From NCBI GenBank assembly GCA_951406725.2, contig OX597818.1:2604001-2668000 (forward strand): a stretch of 64,000 nucleotides of DNA, written 5' to 3'. This document shows, piece by piece, positions 12,653 to 58,734 of this stretch. Made by a program: the position numbers and the translations under genes. The notes beneath the pieces are model-generated. The model was not told the DNA's origin. It saw only the letters and a program-made list of their open reading frames with translations, and did no database searches. Each line of letters begins with the position of its first letter. Within the stretch, counting starts at the first letter, position 1. This stretch comes from Octopus vulgaris (Eukaryota).

Positions 12653-13719
12653 CCCTTTCGTTACCAAACTGCCCGAAAAAAATTTTGGTTAATGTGACCA
12701 AGCCGCCCGAATTTACCTATTCATATTTAAATGAGAATATCAGAGCAAATCTCTTTAGAACATTCGTGAAAACACGTATTATACTTCGTAAATAGTTCAA
12801 CTACAGTTTTGTACAAAAATCGAAGTGTAATTTTAATTCCGTGAATTATGGGAGATTTTTTTCCGAAATTTGTTCGTATTGTGTTTTCAAAATTTGTAAT
12901 TCTGACAAAAAATGGATACGAATTTCATTATATCAAGCAGCGAGTCAGAATTCAAAGGATTTTCTACTGAAGACCTTCATAAATCTAACTCTATGACTGA
13001 AAAAAAAAAGCATGTGATATTTGATAATGAATCTGATGTTTCATTTTCCGAAAGTGAAAACAGTGAATCTGAGATCTCCGACAGCGATAAAGAAAATGAT
13101 TTGGCACCTGAATGGAGTGAAAATTTAAAAACTGTTTCTTTCGGTGATTTTTCTGAAGAAACTGAACCAAGCCACAGACTTTCCCAGAAGAGTAAAGCCT
13201 TAAACTATTTCTTTTTACTTTTTCGAATGAGCCCATTTGAAATCATTACGGCGGAAACGAACTGTTACGCTAAACGTAAACAAAGCGAAAGAAACGATAG
13301 TTTGTTATTTCCCACAACCTTAAATGAAATTAAGGCCTATTTTGCCATAAATATTATTATGGGTATTAGAAAGTTACCCAGAATAACAAATTCTATCATA
13401 AAATTTTGTTGTATACCCAATTGAATATTAGCTAATAACCCATTTTCTATAGCAATGCTTGAACAAAATTTTAATAATTTTATATATTGTTGAATTTACC
13501 TGTATCTACCTGCAATTAGAGTCACTTTGTGACAAAAATTATAGTCTAGAATTGGTTGAGAACATTTCACTAAATTATCTTCCAAAAATCAGATTAATAT
13601 ATTGATAAATAAAAAAGTTATAGTTGTTTAATGAAACCAGACTAAATTTATGAGTACGTTAGAAATTAATTGAAACACATAAGGGGTGTATTTTGGTCAG
13701 AAATATAGTAACAAAAGGG
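12653..13719 (+). mobile_element. Internally deleted piggyBac-family element
   Basis: TTAA|CCCTTTCGTTAC ... GTAACAAAAGGG|TTAA. Confidence 0.9.
12912..13424 (+). pseudogene. Truncated piggyBac transposase N-terminus
   Basis: Acidic Ser-rich N-terminus, then YFFLLF..IITAETNCYA..TTLNEIKAYFAINIIMGIRKLP. The catalytic DDD domain is absent. Confidence 0.85.
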
Positions 13720-14526: not shown

Positions 14527-14995
14527 TTTGTGAAATTTGATTTAGTATTTCTAAATTGAATTTTCCCTGTAAGTTTGGAATAATATTCCCTCATATTATT
14601 ATTATATAAATACATATATATATACATATAAATACATATATATATATACATAAAAATACATATATATATATATACATATAAATACATATATATATATACA
14701 TATAAATACATATATATATATACATATAAATACATATATATATTTACATATAAATACATATATATACATATAAATACATATATATATTTACATATAAATA
14801 CATATATATACATATAAATACATATATATATATATACATATAAATACATATATACATATACATATATACATATATACATATACATATATACATATATATA
14901 TACATATATATATATACATATATATATATACATATAAATACATATATACATATACATATATACATATATATATACATATACATATACATATATAC

Positions 14996-15046
<51 letters not shown>

Positions 15047-15171
15047 TATATACATATACATATACATATATACATATATATATATACATATATATATACA
15101 TATATATATACATATATATATACATATATATATATACATATATATACATATATATATACATATATATATAC

Positions 15172-15222
<51 letters not shown>

Positions 15223-15243
15223 TATATACATATATATATATAC

Positions 15244-15316
<73 letters not shown>

Positions 15317-15317
15317 C

Positions 15318-15674
<357 letters not shown>

Positions 15675-15682
15675 CATATATA

Positions 15683-15823
15683 TGATTTATTGATTCTAGT
15701 TTCAGCTTATGAGCTGTGGCCATGCTGGGGCACCGCCATTTGGTGTTGCTACTTGGTTTCACTTCATGGAGGCTTTCTAGCAACTGCTATTTGGTGCATG
15801 AGAGAGTTCGATGCAGCTGCCCT
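15683..15823 (-). mobile_element. Short 3'-end copy of the CR1-like LINE at 28943-30052
   Basis: Near-identical to 28955-29092 and 26619-26760. Confidence 0.9.
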
Positions 15824-15859
15824 CATATATATATATATGTATATATATATATACATATG

Positions 15860-15893
<34 letters not shown>

Positions 15894-15965
15894 CATATAC
15901 ACATATATATATATATGTATATACATATACACATATATATATATATATGTACATACATATATATG

Positions 15966-15996
<31 letters not shown>

Positions 15997-16007
15997 GTAT
16001 ACGTATA

Positions 16008-16038
<31 letters not shown>

Positions 16039-16130
16039 GTATACATATATATATGTATATATATATATATGTATATACATATATGTACACATATATACAT
16101 GTATACATATATACGTATATGTACATATAC

Positions 16131-16938
16131 TAGACGATTCACTAAATGCCAGTATCTTTTCACCGCTCTCACAGCAACCACCACAATTATCATCATCATC
16201 ATCACCACCGCTGCCACCATCGTCTTCTATCACCAAAAATACCAACAGAAAACCAAATAAGAAACCACTGCCCTCTTCCCCCACATCACCACCTCAATAC
16301 TACTGCAGTAACAAAAACTTAAAGAAACATAGGAAGCAGAATGCGCCCCCACGGCACAAACAAGAAATCCCCAAATATGCCGCTATTCACTGCGCCAGAG
16401 ACTCTGCACAAATAGTGACTGCATCTTCACGCATCTACCCGGCACTAGACGCACTACTGGCCAAGGCCAAAGCACGCATCCCACAATAACATCAACACCA
16501 CCAAATAGTAAATCGAAATTCAAAACACACACAACTCGGAGTCCCAAAATCTGCCGGTATTCCCAACGTGAGAGAACATGTCTACTGAGTGACTGTCCCT
16601 TCACTCATCTTCCAGGGACCCGACGCACAAACAGAAACGGGGCCTCAAGCCAACACACAAACCTGAATAACAATAAAAATAGAAACACACCATGCTGCAG
16701 TAATGCTGGTCCAGTCTTTTCAGGAAGACACAAAAACAACAACAACAAAAGTGGAAACTACAACCCTATCCAACAGTGCAACCACACCTCCAGCCAAAAA
16801 CTGCTCCCTAAGCAGGAAAATTCTTTTTTAGCCATGTTGAACATGGCAAAAGAGATACACAAAAACATTCTAGCCATCACTCAACACCATCCTATGCTAT
16901 TACCCCAGTGCACCAATTCCCCACATTGCTGCCACTAA
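16131..16938 (+). pseudogene. LINE ORF1 remnant with two tandem CCCH zinc fingers
   Basis: Manual translation: [26 protein letters not shown] (Cys at 16378) and [26 protein letters not shown] (Cys at 16552), in the same frame with a stop at 16936-16938. A frameshift near 16365 connects it to an upstream Pro/Ser-rich frame. Confidence 0.7.
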
Positions 16939-19900
16939 CACACACAAAAAATCCAAGCCCCCTGCAACAGTCAAAACCAGCCACTACACTAACCTCCACA
17001 TTCCTACTCAATGCACAAGGTGTCAGCCCTTCCATCAATGCACAAAAATGGAAGGTCCAATTCATTGAAGACTGGGTTGGTAACCATTCACACCACATCC
17101 CTTTCTTCATTCTCACTGAGACCCACCTTGACAACTCCCACTTGGAAGCCGAAGTGAGAGTGAAGAATTTCACAACCATCCGCGCGGATCGTATCGGCAG
17201 GAGGAAGGGTGGAACTGCCATTTTCCTGCATGATTCATTTACGGCAGATGGAAATAGTATATTCTCCAACGGCTACTGTGAATCAGTCACCGTGCACAAC
17301 AAAGCCAATGATCTGACAGTAATTGGACTCTATAGGCCGCCCCAAACACCCATACTGTGCTTTAAAGAATGCCTCAACAGCATTAAGTGCTTTATTCAAC
17401 AGTGCCATTCTAGCAACATACTCATGATGGGAGACTTCAATCTACCCTGTGTTGACTGGACTACAAACTGTTTGAAACCAAGCACTCCCGCCTCAACCGC
17501 TGACAAAGAAGCAGCAGAGTCACTTTTCGACTTTACGAATGAGTTTTTCTTGTCCCAACTTGTCCTTGCACCAACAAGACATCAGAACATTTTGGACCTA
17601 GTGTTTAGTAACCACACTAACACTATACATAACGTTACAGTGGAAAAAACCCTTCTTTCAGACCATGACATGGTTCTCTGTAACATGAAATTCCACCAGC
17701 CGAAAGCTAATCCTAGTGACCTTCCTCCAGCCCACCCATTTGACAACATGGATCTCCATAAAGCCAACTGGGATGCAATCAGGAACGAGCTATCAAATGT
17801 TAACTGGTCCTTTACACATACACACATCTCCACCAACCATAAAACATCTTGGCAGATCTTTGTAGACACCGTCACAGACATATGTGCAAAACACTCCCCA
17901 CCAAGACCTGTGAACAAAAAGTGCAGAATCCCCCAAAACAGAAAAACCATTATCAGAAAAATAAAAAGAACAAACAAAAAAATTAACAAACTAAAGTACT
18001 GCCAACAGCAACACACACATTCGACGGCTATCGCACTGCTTGAATCCAAAAAATATAACCTCCAACATTGCATGAAGTCCCTCATCAATAACCAAAGATC
18101 AGCTGAGGAGAAGTGGGCCATTGAAAAAATCAAACTCAACCCCAAAGTGTTCTTTTCATTTGCGAGGAAACGCAGGGTCACTGTCTCCACTGTAGGCCCT
18201 CTAATTGACGAAACTGGCACTCTCCAAGATAATGCCAAATCCATGGCCGAGATACTGCAGAAACAATACTGCTCTGTTTTCAGCAATCCTGATATGGCCG
18301 ATCTGGGCTGTATCAGTGATGTCAACCCCCAACACACTATATCGGACATAACGTTTAGTGCCCCTGATGTCTTAGCGGCGATAAACGAAATAAAACACAA
18401 TTCAGCAGTAGGCCCCGATAGGTTCCCTGCTTGTGTCCTGAAGGTGTGTCGACACCAACTTGCATCTCCCCTTGCTAATCTGTGGAGAAACTCACTGGAT
18501 GCTGGCTATATTCCAAAAACCTTCTGTCCCAGTCTGTTGTCCCAGTTTTCAAAAAGGGAAACAAGTCCCTTGCAGTGAATTACCGTCCGATCTCACTCAC
18601 CTCTCATATCATCAAGGTATTTGAGAGGGTGGTGAGATCTCAAATAACCCAATTTCTGGAAAGCAACAGACGGCTGATCTCCAACCAACATGGGTTCCGT
18701 AATGGAAGGGACTGCCTAACGCAGCTCCTGCATCACTTTGAGGACATTTTGAGAGCTTTGGGAGAGGGCTCCAACACCGATGTCATCTACCTTGATTTCA
18801 GTAAGGCCTTCGACAGGGTCGATCACAAGATCCTATTGAAAAAACTATCCAACATTGGTGTCTCTGGAAAGTTACTGAAATGGATTAAGTGTTTCCTGAC
18901 AGACAGATCTCAACATGTTGTAGTTGAAGGGATAAAATCAAGCCCAGCCAAAGTCAGTAGTGGCGTTCCGCAAGGCACTGTGCTGGGCCCACTTCTTTTC
19001 ATCATTTACATTAATGACATTAATGACATCATCAAGCACAGCAACATAAAAATCTTTGCAGATGACTCCAAGCTACAGAAGGTCATAAATGAGGCGAGTG
19101 ACCGGACATGCCTTCAGTCAGATCTACTGGCTGTTATCCAATGGGCAGAAAAAAACAATATGCTGCTGAACGAGGATAAATTTGAGCTAATCCACTTTGG
19201 AAAAGAGGATGCCCTGAAACTCCCATACTCCCTTCCTTCAGGTGAAACTCTCACGGCGTCCAACAACATCAGAGACTTGGGAGTAATTGTGGACAACAAC
19301 GTAAGCTGGGCCACTCATATAAACACCAAAGTTGACATGGCCCGCAGAATGTGTTCCTGGATTCTCAGAACTTTCCAGTCGAGAGATATCCACACCATTA
19401 TCCTTCTCTTCTCCACTTTTGCCCGACCCCACCTTGAATACTGTTGTCCACTGTGGTCTCCCCACACAATACAAGGTATCATAAAAGTCGAAGCACCTCA
19501 AAGGGCAATCACAAAAAAGATAGATGGCATGACAGGCCTCGACTATTGGGGTCGACTAGAAAAGCTAAAACTCTATTCTCTCCAACGTCGTCGTGAGCGC
19601 TACATCATCTGCATGATGTGGAAAATATTCCATCAGCATTGCCCAAATGATGTTGGCATCACCTTTAAGGTACATCCAAGGCTTGGGCCCCGTGCCATCC
19701 GCCCAAAACAAAAATCGCACTCTCATCTCATAACAACAATACGGCACAATTATTTCACCTCAATTGGCCCCGCTCTCTTTAACATTACACCAAAACACAT
19801 TAAAACAGAAACTGACCCTATAGGGTTCAAGAAGTCTTTGGACAGATTCCTTCAAGAAATCCCGGATAAACCCCCTACACCCGGATATGTCTCTGTAAAC

Positions 19901-19942
19901 AATAACTCTCTACTTGAGTGGGCCATAGTGCCCAAATTCTGA
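16908..19942 (+). CDS. LINE ORF2 (APE endonuclease plus reverse transcriptase), split by one -1 frameshift at ~18515
   Basis: APE: LTETHL, RADR..RKGGT, YRPP, GDFNLP, LDLVF, SDH. RT: [44 protein letters not shown]. The frameshift sits in an A-run (CCAAAAAC). Confidence 0.92.
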
Positions 19943-20078
19943 CTTGAAAGACTTCACCAGGTGGTGCTATTAAGTTAGACATGGCCTGGGCCAATAATGG
20001 CCGAAACCTATCAAAGTATCAAAGTATCAAAGTATACGTATATGTATACATATATATATGTATACATATATATATATG

Positions 20079-20327: not shown

Positions 20328-20378
<51 letters not shown>

Positions 20379-20426
20379 CATAAGGGACTAAAGTATATAT
20401 ATATATACATGTTGCATATATATATA

Positions 20427-23400
20427 CATCGACGTCACCAGAAAGGCTCGACACCGTCACGGTGCCCTAAACCATGCAAAGGGAGGTAATATCCCCGATG
20501 AAGCGGAAACCACACACGGACCATGGTTTCAAGGTGTATTCCTATCATCGGCGTGTGGTAGGCCTCCGCTTCCTCGACGAATTCTCACTATGCAGGATTT
20601 GTTATATAGATTTTCAAGCAAAATACATTTGCTGATTTCGAAAATCTGTTCGAAAGCAATAATAATTCTCTAAAAGGGATACAGTAACTGCTCGATAACA
20701 TAAGGGACTAAAGCCATCTGAATATGGCTAGGGACAGGGCAGGGTGGTGGGGTGTTACTGTTGCATTTAGCCCCAGGCGAACATCGACGTCACCAGAAAG
20801 GCTCGACACCGTCACGGTGCCCTAAACCTGCAAAGGGAGGTAATTCCCCGATGAAGCGGAAACCACACACGGACCATGGTTTCAAGGTGTATTGCCTATC
20901 ATCGGCGTGTGGTAGGCCTCCGCTTCCTCGACGAATTCTCACTATGCAGGATTTGTTATATAGATTTTCAAGCAAAATACATTTGCTGATTTCGAAAATC
21001 TGTTCGAAAGCAATAATAATTCTCTAAAAGGGATATAGACAGTAACTGCTCGATAACATAAGGGACTAAAGCCATCTGAATATGGCTAGGGACAGGGCAG
21101 GGTGGTGGGGGTGTTACTGTTGCATTTAGCCCCAGGCGAACATCGACGTCACCAGAAAGGCTCGACACCGTCACGGTGCCCTAAACCTGCAAAGGGAGGT
21201 AATTCCCCGATGAAGCGGAAACCACACACGGACCATGGTTTCAAGGTGTATTGCCTATCATCGGCGTGTGGTAGGCCTCCGCTTCCTCGACGAATTCTCA
21301 CTATGCAGGATTTGTTATATAGATTTTCAAGCAAAATACATTTGCTGATTTCGAAAATCTGTTCGAAAGCAATAATAATTCTCTAAAAGGGATATAGACA
21401 GTAACTGCTCGATAACATAAGGGACTAAAGCCATCTGAATATGGCTAGGGACAGGGCAGGGTGGTGGGGGTGTTACTGTTGCATTTAGCCCCAGGCGAAC
21501 ATCGACGTCACCAGAAAGGCTCGACACCGTCACGGTGCCCTAAACCTGCAAAGGGAGGTAATTCCCCGATGAAGCGGAAACCACACACGGACCATGGTTT
21601 CAAGGTGTATTGCCTATCATCGGCGTGTGGTAGGCCTCCGCTTCCTCGACGAATTCTCACTATGCAGGATTTGTTATATAGATTTTCAAGCAAAATACAT
21701 TTGCTGATTTCGAAAATCTGTTCGAAAGCAATAATAATTCTCTAAAAGGGATATAGACAGTAACTGCTCGATAACATAAGGGACTAAAGCCATCTGAATA
21801 TGGCTAGGGACAGGGCAGGGTGGTGGGGGTGTTACTGTTGCATTTAGCCCCAGGCGAACATCGACGTCACCAGAAAGGCTCGACACCGTCACGGTGCCCT
21901 AAACCTGCAAAGGGAGGTAATTCCCCGATGAAGCGGAAACCACACACGGACCATGGTTTCAAGGTGTATTGCCTATCATCGGCGTGTGGTAGGCCTCCGC
22001 TTCCTCGACGAATTCTCACTATGCAGGATTTGTTATATAGATTTTCAAGCAAAATACATTTGCTGATTTCGAAAATCTGTTCGAAAGCAATAATAATTCT
22101 CTAAAAGGGATATAGACAGTAACTGCTCGATAACATAAGGGACTAAAGCCATCTGAATATGGCTAGGGACAGGGCAGGGTGGTGGGGGTGTTACTGTTGC
22201 ATTTAGCCCCAGGCGAACATCGACGTCACCAGAAAGGCTCGACACCGTCACGGTGCCCTAAACCTGCAAGGGGAGGTAATTCCCCGATGAAGCGGGCGGA
22301 AACCACACACGGACCATGGTTTCAAGGTGTATTGCCTATCATCGGCGTGTGGTAGGCCTCCGCTTCCTCGACGAATTCTCACTATGCAGGATTTGTTATA
22401 TAGATTTTCAAGCAAAATACATTTGCTGATTTCGAAAATCTGTTCGAAAGCAATAATAATTCTCTAAAAGGGATATAGACAGTAACTGCTCGATAACATA
22501 AGGGACTAAAGCCATCTGAATATGGCTAGGGACAGGGCAGGGTGGTGGGGGTGTTACTGTTGCATTTAGCCCCAGGCGAACATCGACGTCACCAGAAAGG
22601 CTCGACACCGTCACGGTGCCCTGCAAACCTGCAAAGGGAGGTAATTCCCCGATGAAAACCACACACGGACCATGGTTTCCAAGGTGCCATTGCCTATCAT
22701 CGGCGTGTGGTAGGCCTCCGCTTCCTCGACGAATTCTCACTATGCAGGATTTGTTATATAGATTTTCAAGCAAAATACATTTGCTGATTTCGAAAATCTG
22801 TTCGGAAGCAATAATAATTCTCTAAAAGGGATATAGACAGTAACTGCTCGATAACATAAGGGACTAAAGCCATCTGAATATGGCTAGGGACAGGGCAGGG
22901 TGGTGGGGGTGTTACTGTTGCATTTAGCCCCAGGCGAACATCGACGTCACCAGAAAGGCTCGACACCGTCACGGTGCCCTAAACCTGCAAAGGGAGGTAA
23001 TTCCCCGATGAAGCGGAAACCACACACGGACCATGGTTTCAAGGTGTATTGCCTATCATCGGCGTGTGGTGAGCCCTCCGCTTCCTCGACGAATTCTCAC
23101 TATGCAGGATTTGTTATATAGATTTTCAAGCAAAATACATTTGCTGATTTCGAAAATCTGTTCGAAAGCAATAATAATTCTCTAAAAGGGATATAGACAG
23201 TAACTGCTCGATAACATAAGGGACTAAAGCCATCTGAATATGGCTAGGGACAGGGCAGGGTGGTGGGGGTGTTACTGTTGCATTTAGCCCCAGGCGAACA
23301 TCGACGTCACCAGAAAGGCTCGACACCGTCACGGTGCCCTAAACCTGCAAAGGGAGGTAATTCCCCGATGAAGCGGAAACCACACACGGACCATGGTTTC

Positions 23401-23790
23401 AAGGTGTATTGCCTATCATCGGCGTGTGGTAGGCCTCCGCTTCCTCGACGAATTCTCACTATGCAGGATTTGTTATAGTAGATTTTCAAGCAAAATACAT
23501 TTGCTGATTTCGAAAATCTGTTCGAAACTGCTCGCATACCGGACCTCAAATGCCATCTGAAAAAATATGGCTAGGGACCAGGGCAGGGTGGGGGTAAGAC
23601 ATATATAGCCCCAGTCCCTGGCCATGCATATAGATGGCTTTATAGTCTGTGTTATCGGTAGTCCCATAAACCTGTCACAGGAGTGTACATGAAGTGTGAC
23701 ATATACCATGGTTCAAGGTAGTTGTGCCCTATAGATCGGCGTGGTAGCGTCTCCTCGACGATATACATGTGCGAGGATTTGTATATATAG
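20427..23790 (-). repeat. Tandem array of a 359-bp hammerhead-containing unit (~9 good copies plus 1 degraded)
   Basis: Identical ORF-track peptides recur at 20790, 21149, 21508 and 21867 (period 359). Each unit has one type I hammerhead on the minus strand. Confidence 0.95.
21212..21285 (-). ncRNA. Extended type I hammerhead ribozyme (representative array copy) with variant core
   Basis: GAAGCGGAGGCC-TAC-CACACG CCGATGA T-AGG-CAATACA-CCT-T GAAA CCATGG TC^CGTGTG-T-GGTTTCCGCTTC. Predicted cut between + positions 21230 and 21231. Confidence 0.8.
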
Positions 23791-23814
23791 ATATATATAT
23801 AATATAAATATACA

Positions 23815-23861
<47 letters not shown>

Positions 23862-23878
23862 GTATATATATACATATG

Positions 23879-23922
<44 letters not shown>

Positions 23923-24046
23923 CTGTCTATATATATCAGTTACTGTATATATATATATACATATATATATAGATATATATATCGATCATATATGTATATG
24001 ACATATATATATGTATATATATGCCTGCATAGTGATATATGTATAC

Positions 24047-25325
24047 CACCACGCCGATGATAGTATACACCTATGAAACCATGGTCCGTGTGTGGTTTCC
24101 GCTTCATCGGGGAATTACCTCCCTTTGCAGGTTTAGGGCACCGTGACGGTGTCGAGCCTTTCTGGTGACGTCGATGTTCGCCTGGGCTAAATGCAACAGT
24201 AACACCCCCACCACCCTGCCCTGTCCCTAGCCATATTCAGATGGCTTTAGTCCCTTATGTTATCGAGCAGTTACTGTCTATATCCCTTTTAGAGAATTAT
24301 TATTGCGATTTTCGAACAGATTTTCGAAATCAGCAAATGTATTTTGCTTGAAAATCTATATAACAAATCCTGCATAGTGAGAATTCGTCGAGGAAGCGGA
24401 GGCCTACCACACGCCGATGATAGGCAATACCCTTGAAACCATGGTCCGTGTGTGGTTTCCGCTTCATCGGGGAATTACCTCCCTTTGCAGGTTTAGGGCA
24501 CCGTGACGGTGTCGAGCCTTTCTGGTGACGTCGATGTTCGCCTGGGGGCTAAATGCAACAGTAACACCCCCACCACCCTGCCCTGTCCCTAGCCATATTC
24601 AGATGGCTTTAGTCCCTTATGTTATCCGAGTAGTTACTGTCTATATCCCTTTTAGAGAATTATTATTGGCTTTCGAACAGATTTTCGAAATCAGCAAATG
24701 TATTTTGCTTGAAAATCTATATAACAAATCCTGCATAGTGAGAATTCGTCCGAGGAAGCGAGGCCTACCACACGCCGATGATAGGCAATACACCTTGAAA
24801 CCATGGTCCGTGTGTGGTTTCCGCTTCATCGGGCAGGTTTAGGGCACCGTGACGGTGTCGAGCCTTTCTGGTGACGTCGATGTTCGCCTGGGGCTAAATG
24901 CAACAGTAACACCCCCACCACCCTGCCCTGTCCCTAGCCATATTCAGATGGCTTTAGTCCCTTATGTTATCGAGCAGTTACTGTCTATATCCCTTTTAGA
25001 GAATTATTATTGCTTTCGAACAGATTTTCGAAATCAGCAAATGTATTTTGCTTGAAAATCTATATATACATAATCCTATAGTAGATATTCGTATAAGCGG
25101 AGGCTACCACACGCCGATATAGGCATATATATATATGAAACCATGGTCCGTGTGTGGTTTCCGCTTCATCGGGAATTACCTCCTTGCAGGTTTAGGGCAC
25201 CGTGACGGTGTCGAGCCTTTCTGGTGACGTCGATGTTCGCCTGGGGCTAAATAGTCAACCCCCACCACCCTGCCCTGTCTTACCTAGCCATATTCAGATG
25301 TTTAGTCCCTTATGTTATCGAGCAG
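24047..25325 (+). repeat. Inverted continuation of the 359-bp array (~3.5 copies, more degraded)
   Basis: Reverse complement of the unit. Hammerhead example at 24393-24465. Confidence 0.92.
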
Positions 25326-25365
25326 TGTGTGTATATTTTAGACATATAGCATATATATCCCTTAG

Positions 25366-25517: not shown

Positions 25518-25599
25518 CATATATATATATGTGTACATATATATATATAACATATATACATATATATATACATACACATATTTCATATATACATATTAT

Positions 25600-27446
<1,847 letters not shown>

Positions 27447-27478
27447 GTGTGTGTGATTGTGTATAGAAGAATATATTA

Positions 27479-27902
27479 ATAAAAAGAATTCCAACCTTGT
27501 CTGATTTTCACGTTTTATTTACAATCTTATAATGATATATTATAAGATAATATATTATAATTGAATAAAATAAAATGAAATAGTAGAATGTTAAATATTC
27601 ATTCTGATTGAACTAGTACTTTCATGCATTGAATTCTGCAATCTTCGGTTCATGTAGTAGTTGACAGTCATGCTTCACAATTTTTGACTGTCAAAAATTG
27701 TGAAGCATGACTGTCAACACTACTACATGAACCCGAAGATTGCAGAATTCAATGCATGAAAGTACTAGTTCAATCAGAATGAATATTTAACATTCTACTA
27801 TTTCATTTTATTTTATTCAATTATAATATATTATCTTATAATATATCATTATAAGATTGTAAATAAAACGTGAAAATCAGACAAGGTTGGAATTCTTTTT
27901 AT
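27479..27902. repeat. Near-perfect palindrome with ~210-bp arms and a 1-nt centre at 27689
   Basis: ...cacaatttttgac T gtcaaaaattgtg..., with only two small indels between the arms. Confidence 0.95.
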
Positions 27903-27903
27903 A

Positions 27904-27942
<39 letters not shown>

Positions 27943-28082
27943 TATGTGCATATATATACATATATATATATGTGTACATATATATATATATACATATATA
28001 CATATATATACACATACACATACATATATACATATATATGTATATATATATATATATATATACATGTATATATATATACATG

Positions 28083-28135
<53 letters not shown>

Positions 28136-28286
28136 ATATATACACATGTATATATATATACATATATATATACACATACAATATATATATATATATTTTT
28201 TGTGCATATATATATATATATATATGTGTACATATATATATATACATATATACATATATATACACATACACATACATATATACATA

Positions 28287-28331
<45 letters not shown>

Positions 28332-28334
28332 GCA

Positions 28335-28382
<48 letters not shown>

Positions 28383-28442
28383 CATGTATATATATATACA
28401 TATATATATATGTATACATATATATATGTATATATATATATG

Positions 28443-28487
<45 letters not shown>

Positions 28488-28528
28488 GTATATATATATA
28501 TGTACATATATATATATATATATATATA

Positions 28529-28575
<47 letters not shown>

Positions 28576-28579
28576 GTAC

Positions 28580-28617
<38 letters not shown>

Positions 28618-28635
28618 GTATATATATATATGTAC

Positions 28636-30784: not shown

Positions 30785-30820
<36 letters not shown>

Positions 30821-30983
30821 AAATAATAGTTATCGCCATACTAATATGGCATTCTTATAAAAATAAGAAAAAAGCTGTCTGCTTATTAGCTCCATGAGGC
30901 CATCGCCTTAAGTTAGCTATTTGATACACAAACTGTATCCATATAACCTTCGAACAAGGGAGGTCAGTCGCTCCACACTACTT

Positions 30984-31043
30984 GACCGGCAGCTACAGAC
31001 GCGTTTCGGAGTATTGCCCCTTTTCAATGCAGCGTAGCCAGCC
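30984..31043 (-). ncRNA. Extended type I hammerhead with U3-A8 compensatory core
   Basis: GGCTGGC-TAC-GCTGCA TTGAAAA GGGG-CAATA-CTCC GAAA CGCG TC^TGTAGC-T-GCCGGTC. Confidence 0.85.
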
Positions 31044-31121
31044 AGTAGGTGTCGCTTCCGACAATCTCTGTTCGATGGTTTTATTTACCTAGTTTCGGTG
31101 GAATACATCCACTTGTTTTCA

Positions 31122-31182
31122 ATAATAGAAATATTAAAATAACTAAGTCTCTTTTAGAGAGACTTAGTTATTTTAATATTTC

Positions 31183-31187
<5 letters not shown>
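31122..31187. repeat. Terminal hairpin with 31-bp arms
   Basis: ataatagaaatattaaaataactaagtctct ... agagacttagttattttaatatttctattat. Confidence 0.9.
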
Positions 31188-48541: not shown

Positions 48542-48639
48542 GTGTATATATATATATATATCTATAGATTTACATATACACATATACAAATATATATACA
48601 AATGTTTATATATATATACAAATGTTTATATATATATGT

Positions 48640-50975
48640 AGGGCGAAAAACGTAATATATTCATGTGAGGTGAGTACTCAGTTTAACACACTCACCTATA
48701 TTGGTTGCTCAACCTCCTGGAAATCTAGATACTATAACCACCGGTCCTCGCTGAGACACAGACATAAGGCTAACAGCACCTCCCTTTCTAAAAGAATTTG
48801 GGAATTAAAAGACAAATGTATAGGCTTCAAACTCAGATGGTCCATCATCGGATCAGCTGCACCTTATTTAAATAATAGAGCAGGATGCCAACTATGTTGT
48901 GTAGAACTCCTGAACATCTTGAAATTCAAAGACAAACACAATCTTATTAACAAAAGGTCAGAGTTCAAACCATCCTGTATACACAAACTTATTAATACTT
49001 TCAAATACTACAAAGCTTAGGTTTTATACCAACTCCCCCATGCAATTTCCTCCCACCCGGTGCAACCTGTCGGCTCCAGCACATCCCGCTTTCCTATATG
49101 TGCGTGTATATGCGTATGTGTGTGTGTATGTATATGTATGTGCACATATGTGTACGTATATGTACATATATATATATATATATGTGCGTGTGTGTGTGTG
49201 TGGGTGGGTGTGTGTATGTGCATATATGTTTCCCTGCATTTTCCTCCTATATATACAAATTTTGTCTCCCATACATGACTTCTTTTCCCTAAATACTTCT
49301 TCTCCTACACCCATATCCTTCCTATATAGTCTCTTTACTTCCCTATATCTATACCCTTTCACATTTCTAACTCGGATGTTGAACGCACACCGCCAAACTC
49401 CACTTCCCACCCTTCCAATTTTCAGTTCCCCCGCCCGCCCCTACGTGGACACTTTTAACACACACCTCTAACTTTCAACCACCTTCATCTCATGTTAAAT
49501 TATATTTTTATCTTATTTTATTTTATTTTATTTTTACTCTTATTCTACTTCCATTTATTCTCATTTTCATTTTCATCCCTTACCTTAACTCTTATAATTT
49601 TTATAATTTTTATATTTCATTTCTAACAATTACATTGTATTTCTTATTTTATACTGTATTTCTTACTTTTATTTCTAATTTTTACCCTTACCCTCATTCT
49701 TACCCCTAACTTATCGCTTTACATCTCTATATATGTTTATTTACTTACCTATAGATTCACTTTTGACTATGCGAGTGTCCGTGTACGTATGTATACGCAT
49801 ACATACATGGACGCGCGCATATATGTACATGCATATTTTGATATCTTATAGCTATACCCATATGTCTCTGTGTGTGTGTGTAGGTGTATGTGTGCACGCA
49901 CATACGTACACACAGCCGTGTGTGCGTGCACGCATAGACGTGATTCCTTACATACGCTCTTATATACATCCTTTAATATCTTATATCTAGACCTGGAAGC
50001 GTGGGCATATGCGTGTGTGTATGTAGGGATGGGCGCGCGTATGTACATGTGAGTGTGTACACGTATAGTGTCCGTGTATACATGCGGATATTCTGTTGTA
50101 TGTATGTATGTGTACGCACGTGCGTGTGGGTGTGTGTGTGTTTATATGCTGGTTTACACGCGAGTGCGTGTGTATGCTTATAGGCTTGGAGGCGTATATG
50201 TACCCGTGTATATGGGTGTGTGTATCCATGTTGGTATGTATGTACTAGAAGTCCAAATAATTCAAGGAACCAGATTAAATGCTCAACAGCTCTGATTTAC
50301 AACGCATTAGGTCCCCAGACGAAACTGTTGATTTACTGACAATTCTACAACTAAATTTTATCAATCTCCTGACCACCATGCTTGGTCCTTAACCTCTATA
50401 CATCCCTTATCTTTATATTTTTTTTATATTTTGTTACATTTTTATCATGTTTTTTTTACTTTTATTTTTATTTCTACTTCTATTTTTACTTTATAACCTT
50501 ATGCCTTTACATTTATTTATATTTCTTTATATTTCTTTATATTCTTTATACCCCCTTTACATCTCCTTATATCTCTTTATATCTTTATGCTCTACATTTT
50601 TATATTTTTCTATACTTACACTTTTTATACATTTTTTATCCCTCGTCCTGAATTCTCGCCCCTCCATCTTCACGTATATACATGTATTTATTTATTTACA
50701 TTACTTCAACATCCATTTTTCCTCATCCTACATTGAGAGAAGAAAGAGATGGACGCTTCAATTCTATGCTGCTGCCGTATTATGTCGTACGCGAATGGGA
50801 GGATTTGCATCCCCAACCAAGAATTTTTGATGTAACACATGTCCTTGTGGAAGCTGTTGTGCGCGGCTGAAGAAGGCCACAGACATACATTATGCATTGT
50901 TATAAATCTGTCTAATAAAGGCCCGAAACATATGTACCGCTGAGTCCTTCGCATCATGTTTTTATTTTGATCAAT
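48640..50975 (+). mobile_element. 5'-truncated Penelope-like element (GIY-YIG, long 3' region, hammerhead)
   Basis: NVIYSC..TYIGCST..KSRYYNH..STSLSKRIWELKD..WSII..CQLC..E..LINKRSEFKPSCIH (stop at 49020). Flanked by (TA)n. Confidence 0.85.
50863..50940 (+). ncRNA. Type I hammerhead of the PLE 3' region
   Basis: GCGG CTGAAGA A-GGCC-[~40 nt]-GGCC-C GAAA CATATG TA CCGC. Confidence 0.8.
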
Positions 50976-57000: not shown

Positions 57001-57161
57001 GGGGTAATTGCGTGCGCAGGCAGCGTGGAAAAGGCCTTTCTAAAACGTGTCTTCGCGGTGACAAGACGTGTTCTTCACTTTATACAAAAATATTTTGAGA
57101 CATTCACTGAACGTTAATATTATTTGAATTTATCTTTAATCTGGTCATTTTAATTTGCATC

Positions 57162-58112
57162 ATGGCATCGTGTGTTATTCCGTGCGAGCTGAGTCTGTAT
57201 GACGGGATTTCAAGATTTCGGCATAAAGATGACTTGGCATTAGAATTTTTTCGAGAACATGGAGTAATACCAAGAAATGTGAATTGCCCAACGTGCAATT
57301 CACCGTGTGTTCTACGAAATGGAACAGATATATTTCGTTGCAGGAAAATGGTTCGCAGAAGAAGACAGAAGGCGACAGAATGTGGTTTTTCTGTTTCCAT
57401 ATTTAAGAACACCTTTTTGAATCGGAGTCGATTATCCCCATGGAAAATTCTTTTGTATATAAACCATTTCTTAACAGAAGGTTGGTCGCACCAAGCTGTT
57501 ATGGAGAATTTAGATATAACGCTTGCCACGTCTGTTGATTGGAGGTCTTTCTGCTCTGAAGTCTGCCTTCATTGGGTCGCAAATTCCCAAGCACCAATTG
57601 GAGGGCCAGGGATCAAAGTTGAAATAGATGAGACAGTCTTGGTTAGGAGGAAATATAACAGGGAGAGACTTGTGAAAACTATTTGGCTTTTTGGCAGAAT
57701 AGAAAGAGATTCCAAGAAAAATTTTTTGATACCCCTGACATCGGAATGTGGTGAAATTCTAAGGCGAGATTCTTCCACACTAATTCCATTAATCAGACGC
57801 CACATTCACCCTGGTTCAACTGTATATAGTGATTGTTGGCCCATATATAATAGGTTAGATAGTTTAGGTTACACACATTTTCAGATAAATCACAGCCAGA
57901 ACTTTGTAGATCCAGCAAACTCATCTATTCATACACAGACAATCGAAAGATTTTGGGGGAGCTTAAAAAGAAACGTCATAAGGGCTGGAATTAAACCGTG
58001 TTACTTAAAACAATATGTTGCTAGATACCAATTCATGCAAGCTTTCCGCCCTGCTCCCAAAAGGATCCATGAATTTTTATTGCAAGCTGCGAATTTGTAT
58101 CCTGGGCAATAA
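57162..58112 (+). CDS. Merlin / IS1595-ISXO2-like DDE transposase, 316 aa, uninterrupted
   Basis: N-terminal CPTC..C..C zinc ribbon, PIGGPGIKVEIDET, RRKYNR, WLFG..ER, PGSTVYSDCW, NHSQNFVDP, HTQTIERFW. Confidence 0.92.
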   Translation: MASCVIPCELSLYDGISRFRHKDDLALEFFREHGVIPRNVNCPTCNSPCVLRNGTDIFRCRKMVRRRRQKATECGFSVSIFKNTFLNRSRLSPWKILLYINHFLTEGWSHQAVMENLDITLATSVDWRSFCSEVCLHWVANSQAPIGGPGIKVEIDETVLVRRKYNRERLVKTIWLFGRIERDSKKNFLIPLTSECGEILRRDSSTLIPLIRRHIHPGSTVYSDCWPIYNRLDSLGYTHFQINHSQNFVDPANSSIHTQTIERFWGSLKRNVIRAGIKPCYLKQYVARYQFMQAFRPAPKRIHEFLLQAANLYPGQ

Positions 58113-58371: not shown

Positions 58372-58734
58372 CTAGCAGTATCGCCCGGCGTTGCTCGGGT
58401 TTGTAAGGGAAATAACTATATAAGCATTTTTAGAGATGTAAAGCCATCTCAATATGGTTAACCACAAAGGGGGGGGGTTACTGTAGCTTTTTACGTTCTG
58501 AGATTTAATAATACATTTTTAGAGAGTTACTTCCCTTATGCCAAAAATGCGTTAAAAATGGGGAAAATTGATGGTAAATTTTTCTTTAAATCGTAGACGC
58601 ATCGTAGGGCTCGATATGAATCACGACTATAAGATACCCGGTTTCGGTTAAACTGCACCGCAAAATGTGGGAGTAGTTAGGAATCTAAATCGTAGGAGAC
58701 AGATAGCACACAACTTCACTTTTATATATAAAGA
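58372..58734 (-). mobile_element. Short non-autonomous Helitron
   Basis: A|TCTTTATATATAAAAG ... hairpin plus CTAG|T. Same family as 13832-14229. Confidence 0.88.

Follow-up and report, generated by a model that had tools for sequence, protein, structure and literature searches.

The window, that is, the whole 64,000-nt stretch of the Octopus vulgaris genome analysed here (assembly GCA_951406725.2, contig OX597818.1, positions 2,604,001 to 2,668,000, forward strand), carries a group of non-coding 359-bp tandem units, each with a hammerhead ribozyme motif. A sequence-only reading had taken this group for a hammerhead retrozyme, namely the multimeric template from which a small circular RNA is processed. 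The retrozyme assignment is borne out by the anatomy of the units, their dispersal in the genome and covariation across related families, while the array itself is better read as the product of one insertion event than as mainly a satellite "template". The ends of this and related insertions point to mobilisation by a Penelope-type reverse transcriptase (RT), which would begin copying one repeat RNA at two fixed positions and leave one two-armed insertion in (TA)n, a reading to which we assign a probability of about 0.8.

Organization of the array

The repeat unit of 359 bp has a GC content of about 47% and is set among AT microsatellites, as the description of GC-balanced units in an AT desert had it. 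Unit positions are numbered along the hammerhead-sense strand, position 1 being 21230 of the window (minus strand) and position 359 being C17. The 359-bp period and the 13 motif copies reported earlier are both present, but instead of forming a single tandem array they are divided between two blocks of opposite orientation, which point away from each other. The left arm (20426..23527, minus strand) reads leftwards and holds about 8.6 head-to-tail units with nine hammerhead cores; the right arm (24044..25336, plus strand) reads rightwards and holds about 3.6 units with four cores, one of them exact. The near-identity claimed for the units applies to the 8 of 13 motif copies that are exact, but not to the five with indels, nor to the garbled ends and centre.

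The 516 bp between the blocks (23528..24043) form a garbled head-to-head junction zone, in which remnants of both arms are mixed with AT runs, and both outer ends have the same composition of unit remnants and AT runs. These parts, as well as the indel-bearing motifs, probably reflect a poor consensus. At the left outer end (20378..20425, minus strand) a remnant of unit positions 160-175 passes into (TA)n, so that this is probably an end of the "178" type described below; at the right, remnants extend to unit position 203 at 25363, and this end is therefore probably a damaged "222" end. Both are too garbled for an exact reading but compatible with these assignments. The locus is one insertion of two back-to-back arms, of about nine and about four units, in a (TA)n tract. 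No layout of long terminal repeat (LTR), primer-binding site and polypurine tract is seen in the array, and no open reading frame (ORF) with RT and GIY-YIG endonuclease, as expected of an autonomous Penelope-like element (PLE), lies within it. The AT-rich stretches around the array (14600-16130, 25530-27090 and 26760-28630) are locally repeated at 83-88%, one of them as a fold-back, which may reflect low-complexity likeness or assembly trouble.

Dispersal and insertion ends

The family to which the array belongs (family A) is young, dispersed, mobile and recently active, and its recent insertions number in the hundreds. There are 279 matches among the 40 scored of 586 candidates, on many contigs, and the 150 matches listed among them are 99-100% identical. 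Exact matches to the tail pattern of families A and B number 1,554, with none for the control. Family B is 55% identical to A over the whole unit and collinear with it; families C and D are represented by 218 and 228 exact motif matches, respectively, and further related families are also present in the genome. The unit or its relatives occur, in addition, in contigs of other organisms, two of those with U3/U4 cores. A closed one-unit contig of 390 nt was obtained in four of eight assembled runs (four guessed to be RNA and four others), a product that tandem DNA yields as well and that therefore speaks neither for nor against expression or circles.

The outer ends were read at 75 family-A loci, 39 of which were picked by identity and 36 only by the tail pattern on one contig (C1). 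Two arms are present at 58 of the 75 loci, in every case divergent, and 55 of these 58 pair one end at unit positions 166-180 with one at 216-224; none has two ends alike, and three have one odd end. Among the 133 outer 3' ends, 61 are at 178, 55 are at 222 and the others are a few bases off, with three exceptions, so that the ends lie at about 178 and about 222 and not at the cleavage site; 121 of the 133 touch (AT)4+. The same pair of a short and a long end is found at 25 of the 62 loci of families B, C and D, which were read with only 1.5 kb flanks, and again none has two alike. Of note are the head-to-head junctions (n=56), with an overlap of 1-30 nt in 36, a blunt join in 12 and extra bases in eight. 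Target site duplications (TSDs) of at least 9 bp are seen where the target is not pure TA (L044, L045 and L067).

The two fixed ends flank a 44-nt "tail" (unit positions 179-222; 21009..21052, minus strand), which is predicted to form a hairpin in family A and has a similar complementary stretch in family B; the RT would start at 21053 and 21009. About 18 nt before the first fixed end, a GCCAU/AUGGC hairpin (21071..21088, minus strand), kept in families A-D, is a candidate recognition element for the RT. The one-of-each rule at the ends implies coupling between the two priming events, for which a single RNA is the simplest setting, and the in-register substitutions may be set beside it: 160 are common to both arms and 72 are confined to one arm, subfamily markers included. 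One locus breaks the rule. A family-D array with a long interspersed nuclear element (LINE) inside is present there twice (L250:3256-9445 and L251:1072-7247), inverted at 99.1% identity around a typical head-to-head junction, and both of its outer ends read as the short type; either a 6-kb passenger was copied in both arms or a duplication followed later.

That the array is an inert satellite, its inversion being an artefact of assembly, is scarcely credible. The garbled centre and ends of the locus and the local repetition of its flanks are what such an artefact might leave, yet the two-armed anatomy is clean at 55 other loci on many contigs, and both the dispersal of the family and the covariation of its fold, described below, argue against inertness.

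Known PLE insertions are marked by an inverted 5'-truncated copy, a tail at one end and a bias for (TA)n (PMC8557442; here and below, cited papers are represented by their available text). For the anole PLE, the tail corresponds to the distance between two internal RT start sites, both DNA strands are cut and extended, and a dimer is predicted (PMC11167929). As the octopus ends show this signature of tail plus inversion, a Penelope-type RT is the likely enzyme; the match of the footprint to the PLE marks likewise suggests that two cDNAs were primed on opposite strands and joined head to head. Mobilisation by a PLE RT had been proposed from PLE relics nearby, and it is the insertion ends, not these relics, which support it. 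The relics do exist: the 3' part of a young PLE family with intact 842-aa ORFs elsewhere lies at 48568-50971 (plus strand), with a GIY-YIG relic match at 48568-49020 and a hammerhead in its pseudo-LTR (pLTR) at 50867. They are, however, 23 kb from the array, and nearness is uninformative because the repeat family is dispersed. This PLE family, Hydra-like by eye, targets (TA)n, has its own hammerhead and ends near pLTR positions 307 and 380, about 73 nt apart, a tail that exceeds the reported 30-40 nt. A hammerhead close to that of Hydra-1_Obim (supplement of PMC8557442) was observed at another locus, L340.

Fold of the unit and hammerhead motif

All parts of the motif that had been described were located on the minus strand, namely a 6-bp stem I (CACACG/CGUGUG), a UAC/U internal loop, loop II CAAUACA, the palindrome ACCAUGGU of stem III and a GUC site, with the predicted cut between 21231 and 21230. 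In the example at 21225..21270, stem I pairs 21270-21265 with 21230-21225 and is followed by the core CCGAUGA (21264-21258), stem II (21257-21243), GAAA (21242-21239), the palindromic stem III (21239-21232) and C17 at 21231. Each unit has one type I fold, with a 6-bp stem I, a 4-bp stem II, a short palindromic stem III and loop 1-loop 2 motifs. The helices are thus as the sequence-only reading gave them, but two departures had been missed: the core reads CCGAUGA and not CUGAUGA (C for U at core position 4, or U4C), and a U.U mismatch stands at the base of stem II. Owing to both, the unit departs from the canonical core (C3 U4 G5 A6 N7 G8 A9, G12 A13 A14, A15-U16, H17 and a 10.1-11.1 pair). The covariance-model search suggested as a check did not recover the motif: Rfam gave no hammerhead at gathering score across the window and none at E<=10 on 901 or 106 bases, where the only matches were two weak, unrelated ones.

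The unit folds far better than shuffled sequence (z -5.6; 0/100 shuffles). The rod that extends stem I past the UAC/U loop (21190..21309, minus strand) comprises about 31 bp, or 37 bp with stem I, as counted on predicted folds, and is therefore shorter than the ~50 bp first claimed. Among the short hairpins listed earlier, the GCCAU/AUGGC, UUCGAA/UUCGAA and AGCAAA/UUUGCU helices are present in the minimum free energy structure, while GCACCG/CGGUGU and ACAGUAAC/GUUACUGU are complementary in sequence but absent from it.

Related families keep the hammerhead fold through compensatory changes. In 19 hammerhead representatives, 14 of 19 pairs are changed on both sides, and G5, A6, A9, G12-A15, U16 and C17 are invariant, but the regular expression used to choose the representatives required stem I and its extension to be paired and prescribed these core letters. 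The evidence free of this selection consequently comes from stem II, where three of four pairs are double-changed, from stem III, which is always short and mostly palindromic, and from the variation of the free position 7. Core variants among the relatives include UUGACAA (with U3-A8), UUGACGA, CUGAUGA and CCGAYGA, and the loop CAAAUA is found in part of the family-C copies.

Among 194 family-A cores, 192 are identical, with both U4C and U.U. The predicted probability of stem II is 0.08 in the family-A monomer versus 1.0 in C and 0.78 in D, and pairing of the family-A palindrome between two copies is predicted at -11.2 kcal/mol. By nearest-neighbour energies, adopting the active fold costs 8.5 kcal/mol in A, 8.0 in C and 6.0 in D, values that do not set the families apart. 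Two lineages (L249, L262 and L268; and family A) have a C at core position 4, and in both of them the base of stem II is mismatched (U.U or C.A); the CC of the family-A core also strengthens a rival 3-bp hairpin across the core. In vitro, U4C considerably reduces activity, yet it proved compatible with viroid infectivity, and of the mismatches at 10.1-11.1 U.U is tolerated best (PMC3088659). In the axolotl HHR_Amex2 stem II likewise begins with U.U and stem III has 2 bp, and cleavage takes place mainly in the dimer (PMC7229834), so that U4C and U.U each occur singly in active natural ribozymes. Our best guess is that the family-A hammerhead is a weak, dimer-dependent ribozyme. Cleavage into 359-nt monomers and circles is accordingly a prediction less safe than was first stated, in view of U4C and U.U, the stem II probability and one locus copied from a multimer with uncut sites.

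Transcription and the link to a LINE

The unit contains a likely promoter element of the U1/U2 type, from which each unit would be transcribed; transcripts would begin about 60 nt ahead of the ribozyme cut and continue into the next unit. This candidate, resembling a proximal sequence element, reads ATCAGCA (21343..21349, minus strand) and lies 58 nt before the putative start at 21291; its counterpart is ATCAGTG in families B and D and in U1/U2 genes. ATCAGT(G) stands 57-59 nt upstream of 12/12 U1 and 3/3 U2 genes (two of the U2 being nearly identical) and at -57 to -60 in 10 of 14 LINE-interrupted units. The U1 gene cluster on contig C18 (L289-L300) has the upstream ATCAGTG in common, and a tandem U6-like cluster on contig C1 (L285-L288) has a TATA box without this element. 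A Pol III promoter of the U6 type is unsupported, as nothing comparable lies upstream of the U6 matches; immediately behind position 222, a possible 3'-box has only a loose likeness to the sequence downstream of U1/U2 and was not counted.

The start is also suggested by a young 5.5-kb LINE of the Tx1/L1 type (zf-CCHC ORF1, APE and RT), which is inserted at a single site of the unit, about 298-317, at 15 of 18 loci and at the first bases of U2 small nuclear RNA (snRNA) at the other three, a ratio that is biased because the 18 loci came from a search for retrozyme-LINE junctions. The LINE copies in retrozyme units (L258-L275 and L250/L251) have a TSD of about 17 bp just before the hammerhead rod, and the three copies in U2 carry at their 5' end 14 nt of the B-type retrozyme target, which argues that the donor transcript began at that spot. 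The 5' ends of other LINEs stack at the same unit site in L264, L265 and L267. Lying upstream of the start, such a promoter would be lost on retrotransposition unless the copy spans more than one unit; the tandem habit of the family would thus be accounted for.

A LINE might also be taken for the agent of mobilisation, either the adjacent CR1/L2-type element or one of the L1/Tx1 type acting through twin priming, and a nearly intact APE-RT LINE at 16333-19942 and the tie of the Tx1-type LINE to related families speak for it. We regard this as very improbable. The units lack poly(A) or a LINE-like 3' tail. Their insertions have two fixed outer ends, and the region copied is the same in both arms, whereas the part inverted by twin priming lies upstream and does not overlap. 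The Tx1-type LINE, moreover, inserts into the units without sharing ends with them.

Proposed mechanism and template

Once transcribed, the weak hammerheads are predicted to cut mainly as pairs through the palindromic stem III, some 359-nt monomers being ligated to circles and some multimers remaining uncut. A PLE protein would then nick both strands of a (TA)n tract and prime a cDNA on either side of the 44-nt tail hairpin, at 178 and at 222. Both copies would run past the cleavage site, as they do in the DNA, for up to 15 units and with variable stop points, and would finally be joined head to head by microhomology.

In 258 of 261 passages the cDNA continues past unit position 1, and an RNA that lets both cDNAs cross the cleavage site must have been circular or an uncut multimer. 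A variant at unit position 276 (276C; 21314, minus strand) has ten exact genome matches, all in the window insertion, eight in the left arm and two in the right. Similarly, 303C has 13 exact matches, all at one other locus and on both arms, and 303G fills most units of two more insertions, with two single copies elsewhere. A private variant on both arms fits rolling-circle copying of a monomer, and a monomeric circle is the slightly favoured template for the long uniform arrays, although an uncut multimer served at least once. The 5' ends of the arms are in excess at unit positions 1-60 (38 versus 21 expected) and scarce at 271-359 (13 versus 29), but only three of 129 stop at 1-3, two complex loci being left out of this count; this distribution was discarded as a genomic sign of cleavage, as stalling at the rod explains it equally well.

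Several observations weigh against this sequence of events. At L045 the same switch of unit type occurs in both arms, which is impossible from a monomer circle; at L032, L054 and L276 the arms are out of register, and therefore later exchange or assembly error is also involved; at L036, L042, L049 and L052 variants occupy only some of the units. The private variants could derive from a source array missing in the assembly, or from later unequal crossing-over. As to cleavage, the U4C core lowers activity considerably in vitro (PMC3088659), eight of nine Xenopus retrozyme dimers failed to cleave (10.64898/2026.07.22.740005), and PLE insertion in vitro needed no ribozyme cleavage (PMC11167929). 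The family-A form of the promoter element, aligned with that of B at -58, has mismatches at two of seven positions, and with six such sites per unit it is not significant alone. Regarding a partner, no sequence in common with the units, apart from a Helitron-borne fragment, was found in 52 PLE loci (12 and 40), which are a sample of the PLE families of the genome. No likeness to the unit is seen in the young 842-aa family, whose tail is about 73 nt long versus 44. In the same search, Naiad_Obim, Naiad_Ovul and the hammerhead of Hydra-1_Obim (supplement of PMC8557442), compared by eye, did not match the unit.

Part of this would be accommodated if the PLE-type RT always copied a linear, uncut multimer, the family-A ribozyme being nearly dead and circles uninvolved. 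The switch in both arms of L045 is then expected, as are U4C and U.U in nearly all cores of the youngest subfamily and the low stem II probability; the main PLE substrate in vitro is uncleaved RNA (PMC11167929), and the family with the oddest core has the longest arrays. Linear copying, however, can only shorten, yet arms reach 15 units and locus-private variants fill both of them. The conservation of G5, A6, A9, G12-A15, U16, C17 and the stem III palindrome across families, and the activity of natural U4C and U.U variants (PMC3088659, PMC7229834), also speak for a functional ribozyme, and we consider an always linear template possible, though at less than even odds.

Growth after insertion, by unequal crossing-over from seeds of just more than one unit, would make the tandem arrangement uninformative about the RNA template. 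Variants confined to subsets of units and the period-2 patterns at L036, L042 and L049 are of the kind that this process leaves. It is nevertheless unlikely, for the youngest copies are the longest (medians of 1,666 bp for the loci picked by identity and 697 bp for those picked by the tail pattern, versus 299-507 bp in B-D with their 1.5 kb flanks), unit differences are mostly singletons, and each arm would have had to expand separately.

Rolling-circle copying by a Penelope-type RT can be extended into a fuller, tentative scheme, which we hold to be rather less likely than not as a whole. The arrays would be records of double rolling-circle reverse transcription, in which a dimeric Penelope RT sits on the tail hairpin of one 359-nt circle and makes one cDNA per nicked strand, both for many rounds. 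The ribozyme of the most amplified subfamily would be detuned by U4C and U.U so that both circles and multimers survive to serve as templates, and each unit would carry its own U1/U2-type promoter.

Other elements in the window

A further type I hammerhead (core UUGAAAA, stem III ACGCGU) lies at 30985-31042 (minus strand) in a short element (about 30820-31185) between (TA)n tracts, whose end is preceded by a GCCAU/AUGGC hairpin and whose 5' side holds a perfect fold-back. At 58380-58720 (minus strand) a repeat that we take to be Helitron-like encloses a B-like retrozyme insertion that is very small, two-armed and flanked by an 11-bp TSD; the same piece recurs in L329 and elsewhere, and hence it was amplified with its host repeat. 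The CR1/L2-type LINE at 16333-19942 (plus strand) has one frameshift and ends in a short 8-bp tandem repeat near 20009-20035, and the 3' ends of its relatives recur at about 15700, 26630 and 28958. Relics of DNA transposases are found at 57111-58112 (ISXO2-like DDE) and 12906-13424 (DDE_Tnp_1_7), both on the plus strand.

Comparison with known systems

The octopus family consists of tandem non-coding units within the range of about 150-450 bp, with GC below 50%, and of dispersed copies with TSDs longer than 4 bp. By this anatomy it groups with the metazoan non-LTR retrozymes, though its core departs from the strict consensus. In these, too, the tandem units are non-coding; they measure 350-360 bp and carry one type I hammerhead, with GC below 50%, no LTR features and large TSDs (PMC7229834), and the U.U at the base of stem II is shared with the axolotl HHR_Amex2; the U4C of the octopus core is not. 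Self-cleavage and circles are documented for the retrozymes of that study and predicted for the octopus family. The octopus insertions also have a fixed two-end tail and an inverted arm, and the word "inverted" is absent from the main text of PMC7229834. No report of octopus retrozymes, or of such a footprint in retrozymes, was found in the literature searched, subscription papers, repeat libraries and the supplement of PMC7229834 lying outside this scope.

The endonuclease-containing (EN+) PLEs, such as PAc Poseidon (PMC11167929) and Naiad/Hydra (PMC8557442), resemble the octopus insertions in the inverted 5'-truncated copy, the tail at one end, the two starts, the (TA)n or AT-rich target and the hammerhead near the end. 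The octopus repeat, unlike these, has no ORF; its tail is 44 nt versus the 30-40 nt reported, its hammerhead is of canonical size with tertiary loops, its arms are multimers of a 359-nt unit and its ends are strictly one of each. Non-autonomous Chlamys elements such as MRC1 are likewise non-coding and multicopy, with head-to-tail PLE-type insertions (PMC8557442); they differ in their 3'-end likeness to partner elements and in that no canonical hammerheads are described for them. The newt satellite 2 is also a hammerhead tandem repeat, with an internal snRNA-type Pol II promoter according to a citation in PMC2220036; the octopus promoter, in contrast, is deduced from its position and the LINE junctions.

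The Xenopus retrozymes, too, are proposed to be non-autonomous dependants of PLEs (10.64898/2026.07.22.740005), a link which rests there on likeness to PLE pLTRs and in the octopus, where no such likeness was found, on the insertion footprint. The exact start sites, the target, the strict end-pairing rule and the marked template molecules that the octopus family provides bring the question of enzyme and template within reach of a test that takes a single short RNA and one PLE protein. In addition, the one-of-each rule is relevant to the way in which PLEs generate inverted, tailed insertions, which PMC11167929 left unexplained. Mobilisation of animal retrozymes by PLEs, with the circle as template, has been proposed, not shown (PMC7229834); the footprint, the pairing rule and the private variants of the octopus family are more direct evidence for it than that proposal or the pLTR likeness in Xenopus.

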